NCBI GenBank assembly: GCA_964625535.1 | Contig: CAZVEX010000002.1 | Coordinates: forward strand, 21,559-85,558 | DNA from: an uncultured Gammaproteobacteria bacterium | GTDB taxonomy: Bacteria > Patescibacteriota > Microgenomatia > Daviesbacterales > UBA10151 | Reading direction: 5' to 3' | DNA length: 64,000 bases | Shown: positions 3,350 through 33,905 of the stretch, one piece after another | How positions within the stretch are numbered: position 1 is the first letter of the stretch | Layout of the letters: each line of letters opens with the position of its first letter | Translations under genes and position numbers: made by a program | Notes under the pieces: model-generated | What the model was told of the DNA's origin: nothing | What the model saw: the letters and a program-made list of their open reading frames with translations, nothing else | The model's database searches: none

Positions 3350-4090
3350 TTAGGTATCAAGCATATCCCAATCTTCACCAAGAACCCAGCGTAAGGTTGA
3401 TAGCTTTCCGTTAATCATGCCCCACTCAAAATCATCATGAGGTCCTAGACCCTTTTTCCCATATTTTTTCTCTACCTTCTTCGCAGCAGAAAAAGCACCT
3501 TTAAGAATATCTGGCGGTGTATCTTTACCAAGGTGACCTCCATTTTTCAACAATTGGTGCCGATCATACCAAACTTTATCGGAAAACTCTTCTTCTGCAG
3601 TAAGGATATCTTTTACATTTCTGATTGGGTCTGAGATAAGATTGTATTTCCGAAGTAGTGAAATTTTATTTTTGACCAATTTTTCTAACATCGGTCGTTC
3701 CCAGCACCTAATTTTATATGCTGGTTTATTATTTTTACAGTAATTTTCAAGATAATCTTTAGCCGGGTTAGATAAAAAGTTAGAAACAATAATGATTACT
3801 CCATCCGGTCGTTCTGCGTTTGCCCAAGAGAGAAGGTTTTGGAGTTCTTTAGGAGGTAATCCTTTCGTGTAGTGTTTACATTCAGCGAACCATGTTTCAA
3901 AGTATTTGGTACCATCAACATCCGGATATTCTCTTTGAAAAACAATATCCCTACCCCTGTCGGCAGGACTAGTTTTTAATCCTGTCCCCTTACGCCAATC
4001 GATATTGAAAAAGCCTAACTTTTGAAGCAAGTCAAAACAGAATTCTTCAAATTCAGTTGGACTAAGATTATTAAAAGAAATAGATCTCAT
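3350..4090 (-). CDS. Mrr-cat-like PD-(D/E)xK nuclease-domain protein, C-terminal half unknown
   Basis: The N-terminus (LSPTEFEEFCFDLLQKLGF...ADRGRDIVFQ...FAECKHY) matches the Mrr/restriction-endonuclease catalytic-domain pattern (D...ExK). It lies 60 nt downstream of tRNA-Gln. Confidence 0.5.
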   Translation of the reverse strand: MRSISFNNLSPTEFEEFCFDLLQKLGFFNIDWRKGTGLKTSPADRGRDIVFQREYPDVDGTKYFETWFAECKHYTKGLPPKELQNLLSWANAERPDGVIIIVSNFLSNPAKDYLENYCKNNKPAYKIRCWERPMLEKLVKNKISLLRKYNLISDPIRNVKDILTAEEEFSDKVWYDRHQLLKNGGHLGKDTPPDILKGAFSAAKKVEKKYGKKGLGPHDDFEWGMINGKLSTLRWVLGEDWDMLDT

Positions 4091-4149: not shown

Positions 4150-4223
4150 TGGCTGCGGGATTAGGAGTCGGACCTAAATTAACAGGTTCAGAGCCTGCTG
4201 TGCTACCATTACACCATCCCGCA
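4150..4223 (-). tRNA. tRNA-Gln(CTG), CCA encoded
   Basis: Hand fold: acceptor TGCGGGA/TCCCGCA, U8, D-stem GTGT/GCAC with an AATGGTA loop, anticodon stem GCAGG/CCTGT with loop CTCTGAA (anticodon CUG), T-stem TTAGG/CCTAA with loop TCCGACT, discriminator G, then CCA. Confidence 0.7.
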
Positions 4224-4547
4224 ATATTACTTTATTAACTGTTTAAAACTATTACCACCTTTATATGATTTTAATGCCTTCTCTCTTTCCCTTGCTACCT
4301 GATAACTTCTGTACTCTTCATAATGTATTATTTTAAAAGGTTTTCTTTTTCTTGTTGAATAAACCCCTCCTTTGTTATGTTGTTCCAATCGTTTTTCTAA
4401 ATTCTTACATATCCCAATATAATAGCCTTTATCTATTAAGCTTTGTATTATATATACAAATATCATGAATTCAGAGCCTGCTGTGCTACTTTACCCCGGC
4501 TTGCCCCGCTGAGCGGGGTGAACGGGGCAAGCACCATCCCGCAATAT
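4224..4547 (-). mobile_element. GIY-YIG insertion module with a duplicated tRNA-Gln 5' half (imperfect direct repeat 4187-4227 / 4470-4547)
   Basis: The tRNA 5' half (position 1 to anticodon loop CTCTGAA) is present twice. The upstream copy (4470-4543) has a 42-nt GC-rich nested hairpin replacing TAATG of the D-loop. The GIY-YIG ORF exactly fills the gap. Confidence 0.6.
4227..4466 (-). CDS. GIY-YIG nuclease family small protein (UPF0213/YhbQ-like)
   Basis: 79 aa with the N-terminal GIY-YIG pattern FVYIIQS...GYYIGICKNLEKRLEQHNKG. The ATG directly follows the anticodon loop of the duplicated tRNA half, and the TAA sits 3 nt before the tRNA-Gln 5' end. Confidence 0.8.
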   Translation of the reverse strand: MIFVYIIQSLIDKGYYIGICKNLEKRLEQHNKGGVYSTRKRKPFKIIHYEEYRSYQVAREREKALKSYKGGNSFKQLIK

Positions 4548-4591
4548 GATAAATTATACTTCTTCTGAAAACCTTAGGCAAAATAGGAACA

Positions 4592-4619
4592 TTGACCCAA
4601 ATAGTCAATGTTGTATAAT
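4592..4619 (+). promoter_or_regulatory. near-consensus sigma70 promoter (TTGACC-16-TATAAT)
   Basis: TTGACC at 4592-4597 and TATAAT at 4614-4619. Downstream there is only a Cys-rich 79-aa ORF (4631-4870) and the antisense of the LPXTG gene. Confidence 0.35.
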
Positions 4620-4870
4620 TATTACTTAAAATGCCTAAGGAATGTTATCAGCTCAAAACCGAACAACAAACGCCATGTTTTATTAAAGCAGGAAGTAAAC
4701 CTTGCTCGGGTGATGATTGTCCGGTTGCTAATCGAATACAAGAATTAAGTGCAAATGACACTGCTGTAAGCAACTCGTTGTTTAATCTAATGTTGCATTC
4801 TATATGTAGAATTAGCTCATTATCTTTTGATAACTGGGAGTACAGACAAAGAACCAATCAAACTTCATAG

Positions 4871-5179
4871 TTATTGAGGAAATTTGCGAAGAGACCAGCC
4901 GGAAATTATGGCCGAGAGAGAAAAAACACCAATAAGCAGCATGGGGCTGCCGGTATTTGGTAAAGTTTGTGCTCCGGATTTATTCCTATCCACTATCCTC
5001 GTATAGGCATTAGGAGAAGGCTGCAGCGGTTCTGTTGTTGCTTGGGGAGAGGATTGAGTAACTCCCTCAACTTGTTTTTTTTCTTGAGCAAATCTGCCGC
5101 TTATCAAAAAATATCCCACTGCCAAAGCAGCCAGCACCAACCCTATGGTAATTAGTCTTAGCCAAGGTGAACCTTCCAT
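4871..5179 (-). CDS. small LPXTG-anchored surface protein (sortase substrate)
   Basis: N-terminal signal/TM segment. The C-terminus has LPNTG, then a hydrophobic stretch, then a positively charged RKF tail. Confidence 0.55.
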   Translation of the reverse strand: MEGSPWLRLITIGLVLAALAVGYFLISGRFAQEKKQVEGVTQSSPQATTEPLQPSPNAYTRIVDRNKSGAQTLPNTGSPMLLIGVFSLSAIISGWSLRKFPQ

Positions 5180-5252
5180 GAGCGCAATTTTACCACAAAC
5201 CTATAACTTGAAGCAAGTTACAAGAAGCAAGATGTAATCTTGCGATTATAAT

Positions 5253-6533
5253 CTATGCAACTAAAAAATCTATGGCTGCTTGCACCCTCTCTATAGTCTC
5301 TTCTTCGCCCAGGATTTTAATGCTTTCAAAAAGAGGAGGGGTTACCAGTTGTCCGGAAATGGCCACCCGGATAAGCTGGAACATCTCTCCTGCTTTAATA
5401 TCCATTCCATCGGCCAACTCTCTGAAGGTTTTTTCAAATGAATCTGCATCCCATGGCTTTCCCATTGTTTCCATTTTCTCCAGAATCTTAGTTAGTATTT
5501 CTTTTTTACTTTTAACTTTTAACTTATCAAATTCTTGTTTATCGTATTCCGGAGCCTCCCAAAGAAAATCACAAAGCGGCACAACATCAGAAAGTTTTTT
5601 AATCCTGTCTTTAACCAGCGGAACTATTTTTTCAATCAGCTCTTCCGGGTGTCTTCTTTGCAAATATTCCCAAATTTGAGTTTTGAGTTTTGAATTTTGA
5701 CTTTTCCTTATGTATTCCCCGTTCATCCATTCCAGTTTAGTAATATCAAAAACAGGATTGGCCAGATGAACATCTACCAGATCAAATTCCTCAATCATTT
5801 CATCAAGAGATAAAATTTCTTTTCCGGAAGGAGGAGTCCAGCCCAACAGGGCCATGTAATTTAAGATTGCTTCCGCTAAAAATCCGTCACTGCGAAATTC
5901 CGAGGCCGCTTTGGCTCCATGTCTTTTGGAAAGTTTAGATTTATCAGTACCCAAAATAATCGGTAAGTGAGCAAATTGAGGAGGGGTCCATCCAAAAGCC
6001 GAATAGAGCATCAAATGTTTTGGGGTAGAAGAAATAAACTCATTCCCCCTGATGACATGAGTTATTTCCATAAAATGGTCATCTATTACATTCGCAAAGT
6101 TATATGTGGGATATCCGTCGGATTTGATTAAAACAAAATCTTCTTGAGTATTGTTAGGAAAAGCTATGTCTTTACTGCCCACTAAATCATGCCAGGAAGT
6201 TACACCTTCTTTTTTAGTTTTAAAATATATTGCCCCATCTTTTTCGTAGGCAAAATCTTTTTCCAGCAATTTTCCGGTATGCTCTTTGTATAAATCCCGT
6301 CTTTTAGATTGATAAATTATCTCTCCGTCAAATTGCAGTCCCAGCCATTTTAGAGCACCAATTATATCTTCGGCCGCGCCTTCCACCAAACGAGTCTGAT
6401 CCGTATCTTCAATTCTAAGTGAAAAGGTTCCTTTAGCTTTTTTGGCCACCAAATACGCATAAAGCGCTGTTCTAACGCCTCCTATATGCATTAAGCCGGT
6501 GGGTGATGGAGCAAAGCGGGTTTTAACACTCAT
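5253..6533 (-). CDS. gltX: glutamate--tRNA ligase
   Basis: PSPTGLMHIGG (HIGH motif) and KLSKR (KMSKS motif), which are class I GluRS motifs. Confidence 0.9.
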   Translation of the reverse strand: MSVKTRFAPSPTGLMHIGGVRTALYAYLVAKKAKGTFSLRIEDTDQTRLVEGAAEDIIGALKWLGLQFDGEIIYQSKRRDLYKEHTGKLLEKDFAYEKDGAIYFKTKKEGVTSWHDLVGSKDIAFPNNTQEDFVLIKSDGYPTYNFANVIDDHFMEITHVIRGNEFISSTPKHLMLYSAFGWTPPQFAHLPIILGTDKSKLSKRHGAKAASEFRSDGFLAEAILNYMALLGWTPPSGKEILSLDEMIEEFDLVDVHLANPVFDITKLEWMNGEYIRKSQNSKLKTQIWEYLQRRHPEELIEKIVPLVKDRIKKLSDVVPLCDFLWEAPEYDKQEFDKLKVKSKKEILTKILEKMETMGKPWDADSFEKTFRELADGMDIKAGEMFQLIRVAISGQLVTPPLFESIKILGEEETIERVQAAIDFLVA

Positions 6534-14133: not shown

Positions 14134-15483
14134 ATGACTTGGGGGTACAATTACATCATGAATTATACACTACCTAAGGAGGTAAAAAACATTTTAAATA
14201 AATTTACTAAAGCCGGTTTCCAAGTCTACATTGTGGGCGGGGCTGTTAGAGATTTGTTAATGAAGAAAAAAGTATCTGATTGGGACTTTACTACAGATGC
14301 CAAACCGGAAGAAATCTTAAAACTTTTTCCGGAGGGTTTTTATGATAATAAATTTGGGACAGTAGGGCTACCGGTAGATGGTGAGGTGTACGAGATTACA
14401 ACCATGCGCAAGGAGGGCAAATATGCTGATTTTCGCCATCCCAGTAATGTAGTCTGGACCAATAAAATTGAAGAGGATTTGGCAAGAAGGGATTTTACAG
14501 TCAATGCCATGGCATTGGGCGATAAGCTGGTTGATCCATTCAATGGTCAGGATGATATCAGAAACAAAATAATTCGCGCGGTTGGAGATCCCAACCAAAG
14601 ATTCAATGAAGATGCTCTTCGTCTAATCCGAGCTATCAGAATTGTCACAGAACTGGAATTTGATGTAGAAAATGATACATTTGAAGCTTTAAAGAAAAAC
14701 GCTCGTCTTATTAAGCAAGTTTCATGGGAAAGAATCCGCGATGAACTCCTCAAACTGCTTGCATCTATGTATGGATACATAGGTACATTGAAATTGAGGG
14801 AGGCGGGGATACTGCAAATTATTTTACCGGAACTTGAAAAATGCTTTGGGATAGTCCAAGAAGGACCAAAACATGACCGGATTTATGACATCGGGGAACA
14901 CTCCTTTTTAACCCTTAAGTTGTGTCCGTCAAAGGACCCATTAGTCCGCTTGGCTGCTCTCCTTCATGATATCGGTAAGGTAGAAACTGTGGCCACCCAA
15001 CAAGACGGCAATGTTACTTTTTATAACCATGACGTTGTCGGAGGTACTATTGTCCTAAAAATTGCCAGAAGATTTAATTTGTCTAAAAAACAAACTGATA
15101 AATTATTCAGGCTGGTTAGATGGCACCTTTTTACTGTTGATGAAAATCAGACCGATTCTGCCATCAGGCGATTTATAAAAAATGTGGGGGTGGAAAATGT
15201 TGATGACATGATGGATGTTCGTATTGGAGACAGATTGGGCGGAGGTACTCAAAGAGCCGTTTCCTGGAGAATGGAAAAATTCAAAGAAAGAATTAAAGAA
15301 GTCCTCAAAAAACCATTTTCCATTTCTGATCTCAAAATTAATGGCAATGATGTGATGAAAGTTTTGAAATTAAAACCAGGACCAAAGGTGGGAGAAGTTC
15401 TACAAAAATTATTTGAAGAAGTCCTGGAAGATTCTTCGAAGAATAATAAAAAATATCTTCTAGAAAGAATCAAACAGGTCTAG
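14134..15483 (+). CDS. cca: CCA-adding tRNA nucleotidyltransferase with HD domain
   Basis: PolyA-polymerase head domain (VGGAVRDLLM, DWDF) and HD domain (LHDIGK). Confidence 0.8.
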   Translation: MTWGYNYIMNYTLPKEVKNILNKFTKAGFQVYIVGGAVRDLLMKKKVSDWDFTTDAKPEEILKLFPEGFYDNKFGTVGLPVDGEVYEITTMRKEGKYADFRHPSNVVWTNKIEEDLARRDFTVNAMALGDKLVDPFNGQDDIRNKIIRAVGDPNQRFNEDALRLIRAIRIVTELEFDVENDTFEALKKNARLIKQVSWERIRDELLKLLASMYGYIGTLKLREAGILQIILPELEKCFGIVQEGPKHDRIYDIGEHSFLTLKLCPSKDPLVRLAALLHDIGKVETVATQQDGNVTFYNHDVVGGTIVLKIARRFNLSKKQTDKLFRLVRWHLFTVDENQTDSAIRRFIKNVGVENVDDMMDVRIGDRLGGGTQRAVSWRMEKFKERIKEVLKKPFSISDLKINGNDVMKVLKLKPGPKVGEVLQKLFEEVLEDSSKNNKKYLLERIKQV

Positions 15484-23149: not shown

Positions 23150-24116
23150 ACCATTTAACTGCTAATTTTTCCACATTGGCAGGAAATTCTTTCTTGCTAA
23201 TATCAAACCAACGCACGTTTAGTTCTTTTTTAAACCAGGTCAGCTGGCGTCTCATTAAGCCATGAATTTTCCCCTGCATAATTTTAATTAGTTCGTTGAT
23301 ATCTTTAATATTCCCTTCAAGATAATCAGCCAACGCCCCATATTCCAATCCCAGCTCTCTCATTCTTGTTAAACTTAAACCTTTCCTATGCACTTTTTTT
23401 GCCTCCGCCACTATACCTTGTTTAATTCTTGCTAAAACTTTTTTCTCAGCCCTTTTGTATAAAATATGTCGTGGGGCACTCAAGCCAATTTTTAATATAT
23501 TAAACCTTTGAGCTATACCAACATATTTTTCCTTCGTATTCATGTATGGATACATGGATAAAAGTTCAATATGACGAGACAGACGTCTTGGATTTTGTCT
23601 GTCGGATTGATTTAGATCCTGCCACCTCTCCGGGGAAAGCTCTTTTAATTTATCTTGTAACTGCTCCAGAGAGAGTTTCTCCAAATTCTTTCTTAAATTT
23701 TTATCAGTGGGAACTATCAAATTAGGTAATCCCTCAAGCAAAGCTTTAAGATACAATCCTGTCCCTCCCACCACAATTGGCAACTTTCCCCTGCTCCTAA
23801 CATCCTCAATTACTCTACCTGCATCTTTGACATAATCTACCACTGTATACTGTTTCTTTGGATCTACCACATCATACATCCAGATATTAATTCCATTAAT
23901 TATCCACTGTCCATTTTCTTTTTTAATTTTCAATTTTAAATTTTCAATTTTAAATTTATCCGGTGCTTTCCCGGTTCCAATATCTAAACCCTTGTAAACT
24001 TGTCTGGAATCACAAGAAATCAGTTCACCCTGAAACTTGCGTGCAAGTTGAAGTGCCAAATCAGTTTTACCAGTAGAAGTAGGTCCTAAAATAGCTAAAA
24101 TTTTGGTATTTTCCAT
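23121..24116 (-). CDS. miaA: tRNA dimethylallyltransferase
   Basis: P-loop ILGPTSTGKTDLALQLA, DSRQVYKGLDIGT and VVGGTGLY motifs. Confidence 0.85.
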   Translation of the reverse strand: MENTKILAILGPTSTGKTDLALQLARKFQGELISCDSRQVYKGLDIGTGKAPDKFKIENLKLKIKKENGQWIINGINIWMYDVVDPKKQYTVVDYVKDAGRVIEDVRSRGKLPIVVGGTGLYLKALLEGLPNLIVPTDKNLRKNLEKLSLEQLQDKLKELSPERWQDLNQSDRQNPRRLSRHIELLSMYPYMNTKEKYVGIAQRFNILKIGLSAPRHILYKRAEKKVLARIKQGIVAEAKKVHRKGLSLTRMRELGLEYGALADYLEGNIKDINELIKIMQGKIHGLMRRQLTWFKKELNVRWFDISKKEFPANVEKLAVKWYDRAHGTKN

Positions 24117-29492: not shown

Positions 29493-29508
29493 ATGTATCC
29501 ATACATAA

Positions 29509-33743: not shown

Positions 33744-33833
33744 ATTTTGATTAAACCAGACTTGTTTTTATTTTGCAATACTCCAAATTACTCTCATGTA
33801 TTGATGTATGGATACATAAATACGTAGGTTCGG

Positions 33834-33905
33834 TCGGGGATGAGAGAATTGAACTCTCTGCTTCTCGGACCCCATCCGAGCGGTCTACCGATGACCTAAT
33901 CCCCG
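33834..33905 (-). tRNA. tRNA-Pro(GGG)
   Basis: Hand fold: acceptor CGGGGAT/ATCCCCG, D-stem GGTC/GACC, anticodon stem CTCGG/CCGAG with loop ATGGGGT, T-stem GAGAG/CTCTC with loop TTCAATT, discriminator A. Confidence 0.75.

Follow-up and report, generated by a model that had tools for sequence, protein, structure and literature searches.

A probable homing-type GIY-YIG element in a tRNA-Gln gene of Candidatus Daviesbacteria and its hairpin-bearing, tRNA-linked relatives

A 64-kilobase stretch of DNA from Candidatus Daviesbacteria (contig CAZVEX010000002.1, here called the window) carries a small open reading frame (ORF) for a GIY-YIG protein of 79 amino acids (aa), wedged between a partial copy of a transfer RNA (tRNA) gene and the complete form of the same gene. 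The segment at 4224..4547 is probably a small selfish element of the homing type, lodged in the 5' part of a chromosomal tRNA-Gln(CTG) gene and spreading by homing. Such an element would be made up of a conserved GC hairpin, a short tRNA relic and the 79-aa GIY-YIG gene, while a direct repeat of 14-16 base pairs (bp), which includes the first 12 bases of the tRNA, would rebuild a complete tRNA directly after the stop codon of the ORF. Elements of this kind, embedded in tRNA genes and equipped with a tiny nuclease gene, apparently constitute a large family that has so far gone undescribed.

The anatomy of the locus, read along the minus strand in window coordinates and with lengths in nucleotides (nt), is as follows.

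4581..4553, minus strand: promoter-like site TTGCCT-17-TATAAT (consensus scan, 10/12 matches)
4547..4532, minus strand: left copy of a 16-nt direct repeat, ATAT followed by TGCGGGATGGTG, tRNA positions -4 to 12 (sequence reading)
4543..4532, minus strand: tRNA positions 1-12 of the left copy, a block identical to the intact tRNA
4531..4490, minus strand: GC-rich nested hairpin block of 42 nt, CTTGCCCCGTTCACCCCGCTCAGCGGGGCAAGCCGGGGTAAA, which replaces the five D-loop bases TAATG and divides into CTTGCCCCG TTCA CCCCG CTCAG CGGGG CAAGC CGGGG TAAA
4489..4470, minus strand: tRNA positions 18-37 of the left copy, GTAGCACAGCAGGCTCTGAA, 20/20 identical to the intact tRNA
4469..4467, minus strand: TTC linker from the tRNA-derived leader to the ATG (sequence reading)
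4466..4227, minus strand: ORF of the 79-aa GIY-YIG protein with an ATG start, UPF0213/SLX1-like, catalytic domain only
4229..4227, minus strand: stop codon TAA of the ORF, followed by TAT and then by tRNA position 1 at 4223
4227..4212, minus strand: right copy of the 16-nt direct repeat, composed of the last stop-codon base, TAT and tRNA positions 1-12
4223..4150, minus strand: intact tRNA-Gln(CTG) of 74 nt (ARAGORN; Rfam RF00005, 61.1 bits)

With its four upstream nucleotides the direct repeat reads ATATTGCGGGATGGTG, at 4547..4532 and again at 4227..4212, and the exact tRNA matches of 12 and 20 nt lie in register at a distance of 320 nt, which is far beyond chance. The second block comprises the 3' strand of the D-stem, the 5' strand of the anticodon stem and the whole anticodon loop CTCTGAA, on whose last base (4470) it ends. 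The TTGCCT-17-TATAAT site reads as the native promoter of the tRNA-Gln gene, now standing ahead of the left partial copy, and a canonical Shine-Dalgarno sequence is absent from the leader and TTC region ahead of the ATG of the ORF. Much of this had been described in the original prediction, of which the intact tRNA (by the ARAGORN call and the Rfam tRNA model), the GIY-YIG ORF (by Pfam), the TAA three nucleotides ahead of tRNA position 1 and the upstream succession of tRNA sequence, TTC and ATG were all recovered. The copied 5' half was described there as one contiguous piece; its two blocks, 1-12 and 18-37, are indeed exact, but the 42-nt hairpin between them had been overlooked. Similarly, the proposed scoring of both copies with tRNA models holds for the intact gene, while the left copy receives no tRNA call from ARAGORN or Infernal, as is expected of a copy that is truncated and interrupted. 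The identical arrangement is present in 6/6 independent assemblies of the window's population, and an assembly artefact is therefore ruled out.

It could be supposed that the left copy is the 5' exon of an intron-containing or split tRNA and that the ORF is an intron-encoded homing endonuclease, given that the copy stops on the last base of the anticodon loop, where introns usually lie. This explanation is exceedingly improbable and was discarded on the Rfam results, since no group I or group II intron or other RNA family is detected by Rfam down to E=10; moreover, the downstream tRNA is complete on its own, the D-loop of the left copy is destroyed and the ends of the copy vary among relatives.

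The window was traced to the Candidatus Daviesbacteria metagenome-assembled genome GCA_016192235.1, and its gltX gene led to syntenic relatives, here as elsewhere designated by locus numbers (L). In L170 and L169 (gltX 75% identical to that of the window) and in L168 (80%) the gene order is aspS, peptidase, X, gltX, a small ORF and tRNA-Gln(CTG) with its promoter; the tRNA gene is uninterrupted in all three, and a GIY-YIG ORF is absent. In L170 this gene begins 7 nt beyond the conserved promoter, and the empty site has no hairpin. In an end-free pairwise alignment the upstream flanks of the window and L170 are identical at 110/123 positions up to position 1 of the left copy, and their tRNA-Gln genes at 72/74, both differences belonging to one compensatory T-stem pair; the filled allele is 320 bp longer than the empty one of L170. 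In the window the native promoter and the first 12 bases of the original gene now lie 320 bp from the rest of the tRNA, and since the relatives are empty, the window carries a 320-bp insertion. L171 (gltX 68% identical) is filled at the same locus, with a different, simple hairpin and a UUG-type relic beside its CUG gene, and the site is thus polymorphic for presence (window, L171) and absence (L168, L169, L170). Another Daviesbacteria genome has a related ORF at a tRNA-Gln(TTG) in a different neighbourhood. The idea of an invasive element, and the search for empty sites that had been named beforehand as its check, accordingly come out in favour of insertion.

The position of the junction can be read from the 25 loci of the Gln clade. 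In 18/25 of them the first block (positions 1-12, usually together with the two preceding nucleotides) matches the neighbouring intact tRNA exactly, and at least nine different 12-mers occur among these first blocks. Beyond the hairpin, identity to the adjacent tRNA persists for 2 to 24 nt and then breaks down, and the segment can be altogether foreign to the local gene: L171 and L013 have UUG-type sequence beside a CUG gene, and L008, L095, L097 and L092 have different anticodon stems. Because the end of the post-hairpin segment varies while the break 12|18 is constant, the discontinuity lies at the hairpin and not at the anticodon loop. That the anticodon-loop end is the insertion point, as the original prediction had it, is consequently not supported, all the more so as other clades break elsewhere. 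The post-hairpin segment seems to behave as a relic that travels with the ORF, and the host-type segment of the window may derive from a donor with the same tRNA or from a later conversion.

The close association with tRNA genes extends well beyond this locus. Relatives of the ORF were collected at 160 loci from species-representative genomes and metagenomes, and 161 loci were analysed. A tRNA on the same strand lies within -20..+100 nt of the ORF in 144/161 loci, contig ends truncate a further 11, and of the six exceptions, four (L031, L056, L069, L072) have a second match to the ORF, one that does adjoin a tRNA; a tRNA on the opposite strand was found at none of the 161. The linked isotypes are Gln, Tyr, Ser, Gly, Pro, Thr, His, Asp and Val, and the hosts belong mostly to the Candidate Phyla Radiation (CPR, Patescibacteria), together with metagenome-assembled genomes labelled Bacteroidota, Ignavibacteria, Acidobacteriota and Omnitrophica. 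Most loci have a partial copy of the adjacent tRNA on the other side of the ORF, in one of two layouts: in the 'downstream' layout, to which the window belongs, a 3'-truncated tRNA copy is followed by the ORF and the intact tRNA, and in the 'upstream' layout the intact tRNA is followed 0-30 nt later by the ORF, whose end is overlapped by the 5' end of a tRNA copy. In many members the tRNA itself supplies the stop codon, for example UAG at tRNA positions 8-10, which is why database proteins end in CGIV, the translation of TGCGGGATCGTC. Database versions of the ORF often have spurious N-terminal extensions from the tRNA-like leader and hairpin, such as CRVVLAPFTPLSGASRGKVG (seen among P0006, P0019, P0020, P0003 and P0007), as well as C-terminal CGIV or CRVV tails that are the translated first 12 nt of the downstream tRNA. 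A family profile search returned 6,735 cluster representatives at E<=1e-10, and no relatives were found in a scan of the IMG/VR viral contigs. The clusters formed by the proteins follow the isotype of the tRNA and the position of the hairpin, and the Gln clade is pure.

These data also bear on the suggestion that the locus is the scar of an integrase island at a tRNA gene, in which the repeat is a duplicated att site and the GIY-YIG ORF leftover cargo. It is true that tRNA genes are classic integration sites and that the 3' flank is variable (the window has an Mrr-like gene there and L171 a serine recombinase). However, the duplicated part is the 5' end of the tRNA (positions -4 to 12) and not its 3' end, the repeats bracket 320 bp that hold only the GIY-YIG ORF and no recombinase, and the same tight geometry of ORF and tRNA recurs at 144 unrelated loci. 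On this repeat geometry the explanation was set aside as very improbable.

The 79-aa protein is, by profile, residues and fold, a member of the GIY-YIG superfamily in its UPF0213/SLX1-like branch. Pfam PF01541 (GIY-YIG) is matched with 54.3 bits (cut-off 22.6; 1.7e-14), and searching the PDB with a profile of the relatives gives the UPF0213 protein BH0048 at 9e-14 and SLX1 at 6e-06, so that the closest solved relatives are the UPF0213 proteins BH0048 and EF2693, followed by the SLX1 nuclease domain. Among 35 relatives, Y5 and Y16 are at least 90% conserved and R26, H30, N31 and E62 are invariant. The AlphaFold model (predicted local distance difference test score 93) has the order beta-beta-alpha-beta-alpha-alpha and is matched by Foldseek to UPF0213, SLX1 (TM-score 0.70-0.75) and the I-TevI catalytic domain. 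Sequence and fold are thus held in common with UPF0213/YhbQ-type proteins and SLX1, to which the subfamily of the window adds a C-terminal KSYKGG motif of its own. Nuclease activity can be presumed from these features. In ten ORF pairs the ratio of non-synonymous to synonymous substitution rates (dN/dS) is 0.02-0.22, and the protein is therefore maintained by purifying selection. To our knowledge, UPF0213 proteins have no assigned function and no known linkage to tRNA genes; SLX1 needs its partner SLX4 and a RING domain.

Amplification and decay of the elements are seen at a number of loci. Several genomes (CAZPKD01, CAZJOI01, JAZDOQ01, CBDFHE01) have several copies at different tRNAs. In L006, L012 and L093 the ORF and a complete tRNA-Gln stand between the 5' and 3' pieces of another hairpin-bearing tRNA-Gln with a different acceptor stem, and these heterologous cassettes show that ORF and tRNA can enter a resident gene as a unit. 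Flanking copies overlap in L100, L026, L162 and L076, and tandem units of ORF and hairpin-tRNA occur in L050 (2367-3360), where the two ORFs are 100% identical, and in L144 (1301-2200), where they are 99.6% identical, all of which shows ongoing recombination and amplification. The cassettes and the tandem copies of L050 and L144 are also indirect signs of a possible unidirectional gene conversion. Truncated ORF copies are present in L071 and L018. L144 also has repeated hairpin-tRNA fragments devoid of an ORF upstream of its intact tRNA. In L093 (about 1821-1990) and L006 (3338-3455) tRNA-Gln pseudo-copies that lack the first 3 nt lie downstream of the intact tRNA, and the 3' strand of their acceptor fits the upstream partial copy and not the intact tRNA.

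Purifying selection of this strength could also be explained by a domesticated gene of benefit to the host, engaged in maintenance or copy correction of tRNA genes, in defence or anti-defence, or in control of precursor processing, the linkage to tRNAs then serving co-expression. The strict same-strand arrangement with near-zero spacing would agree with such a role, as would the identity of positions 1-12 of the left copy to the functional tRNA in those 18/25 Gln-clade loci despite the diversity of 12-mers, which could reflect an interaction with the 3' acceptor strand at the level of RNA. A parallel is offered by SegB, a GIY-YIG homing endonuclease of phage T4, which has recently been reported to aid the phage by amplifying tRNA or anti-defence loci (PMC13096335). 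On the other hand, presence is patchy at one and the same locus among close relatives, genomes hold several copies at different tRNAs, and identical tandem copies, truncated ORFs and hairpin-riddled dead tRNA copies are found; patchiness, multiple copies and tandem and decayed copies are signatures of selfish DNA, and a benefit to the host is on balance unlikely.

The hallmark of the family is the hairpin. In 141/161 loci the ORF has, within 200 nt, one or more GC hairpins whose stem measures at least 6 bp; their density is 4.1 per kilobase (kb) within that distance compared to 0.15 per kb in the rest of the loci, and no other perfect copy of the motif exists in the 64-kb window, so that a genome-wide repeat is excluded. 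Almost invariably the stem consists of YCCCGC(C) paired with (G)GCGGGR, the C-rich arm coming first on the sense strand. The core CCCGC...GCGGG has 228 instances; in the pair just outside it, C-G accounts for 130, T-A for 83 and non-Watson-Crick combinations for only 15, which is clear covariation. The two arms are 3 to 5 nt apart, and this variable spacing suits a folded hairpin but not a double-stranded dimer site of rigid geometry. It is always the partial tRNA copy that holds the hairpin, which lies on the outer edge of the unit and at a position that is specific to each clade:

Gln clade: hairpin in the D-loop, break 12 / 18
Tyr clade A: hairpin in the D-loop, break 15 / 18
Tyr clade B: hairpin inside the anticodon, break 35 / 36
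Gly, Thr, His and Asp: hairpin replaces the anticodon arm, break 25 / 43
Pro clade: hairpin replaces the D-arm

In the Pro clade the hairpin-bearing copy still scores 50 bits with the Rfam tRNA model. Dead copies carry up to four hairpins, as in L093, where the D-loop holds two and position 26 and the variable loop one each; nested hairpins such as that of the window also occur, and L110 (365-478) has a five-fold tandem array of the hairpin alone. In the predicted fold of the window the hairpin forms a long extension of the D-stem, the leader reaching -33.7 kcal/mol. Between the window and L090 the hairpin block is 41/43 identical while the ORFs are 69% identical in DNA, and this better conservation marks it as a constrained cis element and not a neutral scar. 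In L015, L045, L054, L019 and L051 there is a variant, CACCGCC...GGCGGGG, in which an A stands opposite a G at the second stem position in 13 distinct instances, a conserved feature that hints at a specific motif and not a plain helix. Concerning the strand on which folding takes place, mismatches in imperfect stems are G-T in 15 cases and A-C in 6, a noisy count with tRNA T-arms mixed in. Three further candidate functions were dropped: occlusion of the start codon, because the ATG region is unpaired in the predicted fold of the window leader; a promoter, because the spacing of the TTGCCC and TAAAGT parts varies from 12 to 30 nt; and a resemblance to the glutamine-II riboswitch in Rfam (12 bits, E=3.5), a weak match put down to chance.

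It is conceivable, although the probability is small, that mobility is centred on the hairpin itself, as the cis site of an SLX1-like structure-specific nuclease that would act on it as an extruded hairpin, single-stranded DNA or RNA. Hairpin-dependent cutting and recombination into tRNA-shaped DNA loops, possibly through an excised or circular intermediate, would then take the place of classical cleavage of an empty allele. This view would account for a hairpin that is better conserved than the protein and that recurs on the outer edge of the unit in 141/161 loci whatever the tRNA type, for its presence in, or replacement of, the D-loop, anticodon, variable loop, T-loop and the loops of other hairpins, and for its accumulation up to four per pseudo-tRNA (L093) or in tandem (L110). 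The spacing of the arms suits a folded form, the closest solved folds include SLX1 structure-specific nucleases, and the overlapping duplications of L100, L093, L026 and L162 have the geometry of a circle integrating via a hairpin-bearing tRNA fragment. Yet GIY-YIG enzymes hydrolyse DNA without a covalent intermediate and are not known to rejoin it, a stem of 6-7 bp is short for a cruciform to be extruded, neither a circular nor an excised form has been observed, and the empty site has no hairpin, so that a naive tRNA can be the target.

Under the preferred reading of a homing-type element, the family clades would be specialised for particular tRNA genes, and the nuclease would break an uninterrupted cognate tRNA gene at the point where the hairpin sits in the interrupted copy, that is, in the D-loop for the Gln clade. 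The break would be repaired from the element-bearing allele with tRNA sequence on either side as homology, the left end pairing with the donor's 1-12 block of the interrupted copy and the right end with the donor's intact tRNA or its downstream remnant, and repair would copy the hairpin, relic and ORF and restore the tRNA. Such a scheme would yield the window type, the heterologous cassettes with two flanks, and solo hairpin-tRNA fragments as by-products. The ORF would have no promoter of its own and would be transcribed from the tRNA promoter within the tRNA precursor, from which a cut by RNase P three nucleotides past the stop codon would separate mRNA and tRNA. In a promoter search the sole strong promoter-like site was the one upstream of the left copy, which is conserved in the empty L170, and with all 144/144 linked relatives on the same strand, this is in keeping with the co-transcription that the original prediction had put forward as an alternative.

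Several observations weigh against homing as outlined here. Gain and precise loss look alike on so small a tree, and the gain need not be recent: precise loss would be possible through the direct repeat of 14-16 bp on either side, and the window and L171 (ORFs 66% and gltX 68% identical) may both descend from one ancestral insertion, which L168 and L170 would then have lost precisely. The population of the window offers no empty allele, all 6/6 assemblies being filled. Both tRNA-derived blocks are host-type in the window, and the boundary between element-borne and host sequence is drawn from other loci; likewise, cleavage by the 79-aa protein and its site are surmised from the position of the hairpin. 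The protein has no DNA-binding module by Pfam or in the model (NUMOD, zinc finger or helix-turn-helix), the catalytic domain filling all 79 aa, and for this reason it can be said to work like SegB but is not a member of the I-TevI/Seg family. The rebuilt tRNA equals that of the empty allele through position 45, so that the element's own locus would be visible to a tRNA-targeting nuclease, and the strong sequence conservation of the hairpin is not explained by disruption of the target site alone. How a domain of 80 aa would find its target, how the rebuilt tRNA would be spared and why the hairpin is conserved remain unexplained, and the hairpin-based and host-benefit explanations are retained for these three reasons.

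A more speculative proposal, which is improbable as matters stand, is that the hairpin and the tRNA-derived flanks form a targeting module or guide for a nuclease that itself lacks a binding domain. In the form of leader RNA or folded DNA the hairpin would be bound by the enzyme, and the tRNA flanks of 12 nt and roughly 15-20 nt would steer the enzyme to the cognate tRNA gene by base pairing or through a tRNA-shaped structure, giving a minimal form of nucleic-acid-guided homing that is re-programmed by recombination with a new tRNA. If true, this would explain specificity without a binding domain, the use of one hairpin across isotypes, the coincidence of the clade-specific hairpin with the break point, and a left copy that tracks the local tRNA.

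Among known systems, the anatomy of the window element, by analogy, strikingly parallels that of T4 SegB, which is encoded in a tRNA cluster, recognises a tRNA-gene motif, and is transcribed within the tRNA precursor while its own genome stays cleavable; low expression, through a 5' hairpin and tRNA processing at the stop codon, has been proposed as protection (PMC2330249). SegB, the F-Tfl enzymes of T5 and the window all have a free-standing GIY-YIG ORF wedged among tRNA genes of the same strand, and with SegB the window also shares presence and absence between relatives and a hairpin close to where the ORF starts. On the homing reading, further features in common would be tRNA processing at or beside the stop codon, transcription within the tRNA precursor, a recognition site of tRNA-gene sequence and a carrier genome that stays cleavable. 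By the same analogy, SegB would be the only precedent that addresses the self-cleavage problem of a rebuilt tRNA. The differences are that SegB has 221 aa with a NUMOD DNA-binding part whereas the ORF of the window has 79 aa and the catalytic domain alone, that SegB resides in phages whereas the family of the window is chromosomal (CPR, Bacteroidota, Ignavibacteria, Acidobacteriota and others, none in IMG/VR), and that partial tRNA duplication and conserved hairpin-substituted tRNA copies belong to the family of the window, none being reported for SegB.

Free-standing GIY-YIG ORFs of fungal mitochondria, for example at Allomyces atp6, supply a new end for the gene they enter, and the original end is left displaced as a pseudo-copy. 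There, as in the window, an essential gene is invaded, its function is kept by part-duplication and the displaced piece lies beside the ORF, but the hosts are protein-coding genes, the endonucleases are larger, and neither a conserved hairpin nor tRNA targets are involved. Integrative elements that target tRNA genes also enter an essential tRNA gene and repair it by duplication; unlike the element of the window, they rely on recombinases of the tyrosine or serine type, duplicate the 3' end and reach kilobases in length. Insertion sequences in CPR rRNA genes encode GIY-YIG proteins outside introns, many at the tips of stem-loops, in a study that does not treat tRNA genes (PMC11270868). Compared by description, they have in common with the window the host radiation, stable-RNA genes as sites and non-intron GIY-YIG ORFs; however, they interrupt the rRNA and must be removed or tolerated at the level of RNA, whereas the tRNA of the window is rebuilt intact in DNA, so that the functional tRNA is uninterrupted and only the redundant partial copy is interrupted. 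The open-access full-text literature yielded no account of UPF0213-like GIY-YIG genes linked to tRNAs, or of tRNA copies in which a hairpin is substituted, although an earlier description is possible.

Other features of the neighbourhood may be recorded separately. The 3' flank of tRNA-Gln differs in each relative, with an Mrr_cat restriction-endonuclease-like gene (3350-4090, minus strand) in the window, a 91-aa ORF in L170, ORFs of 218 aa and 59 aa in L168 and a serine recombinase in L171, and the downstream side of the gene looks like a separate hotspot of gene turnover. Divergent from the tRNA-Gln promoter region lies a Cys-rich ORF of 79 aa (4631-4870, plus strand) with its own TTGACC-16-TATAAT site at 4592..4619; it is conserved and called as a gene in relatives (L002; L170 at 5118..5357) but is assigned to no family. 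A gene lying between gltX and the tRNA locus (4871-5179, minus strand) encodes a 102-aa protein that is conserved in the syntenic relatives and has a C-terminal LPxTG-like sorting signal, LPNTGSP followed by a hydrophobic tail, and a weak match to Pfam Gram_pos_anchor. Elsewhere in the window the 14-nt near-palindrome ATGTATGGATACAT occurs in four exact copies, compared to 0.03 expected by chance, one of them just 3' of tRNA-Pro(GGG) (33832..33905, minus strand); the motif may serve regulation or be associated with a terminator.

14767-14780: near-palindrome copy
23542-23555: near-palindrome copy
29493-29506, minus strand: near-palindrome copy
33804-33817: near-palindrome copy

The interpretation advanced here accounts for odd partial or hairpin-bearing 'tRNA' calls and for ORF annotations that extend into tRNA sequence at either terminus. 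If it is correct, a widespread group of uncharacterised small GIY-YIG proteins related to UPF0213, comprising the 6,735 cluster representatives, would be tied to tRNA genes. It would also describe a strategy of persistence, in which a selfish gene in an extremely reduced genome could sit in an essential tRNA gene, borrow its promoter and rebuild it by means of a 12-nt duplication. Should the mechanism prove to be assisted by nucleic acid, such proteins could be of practical use as very small programmable nucleases.

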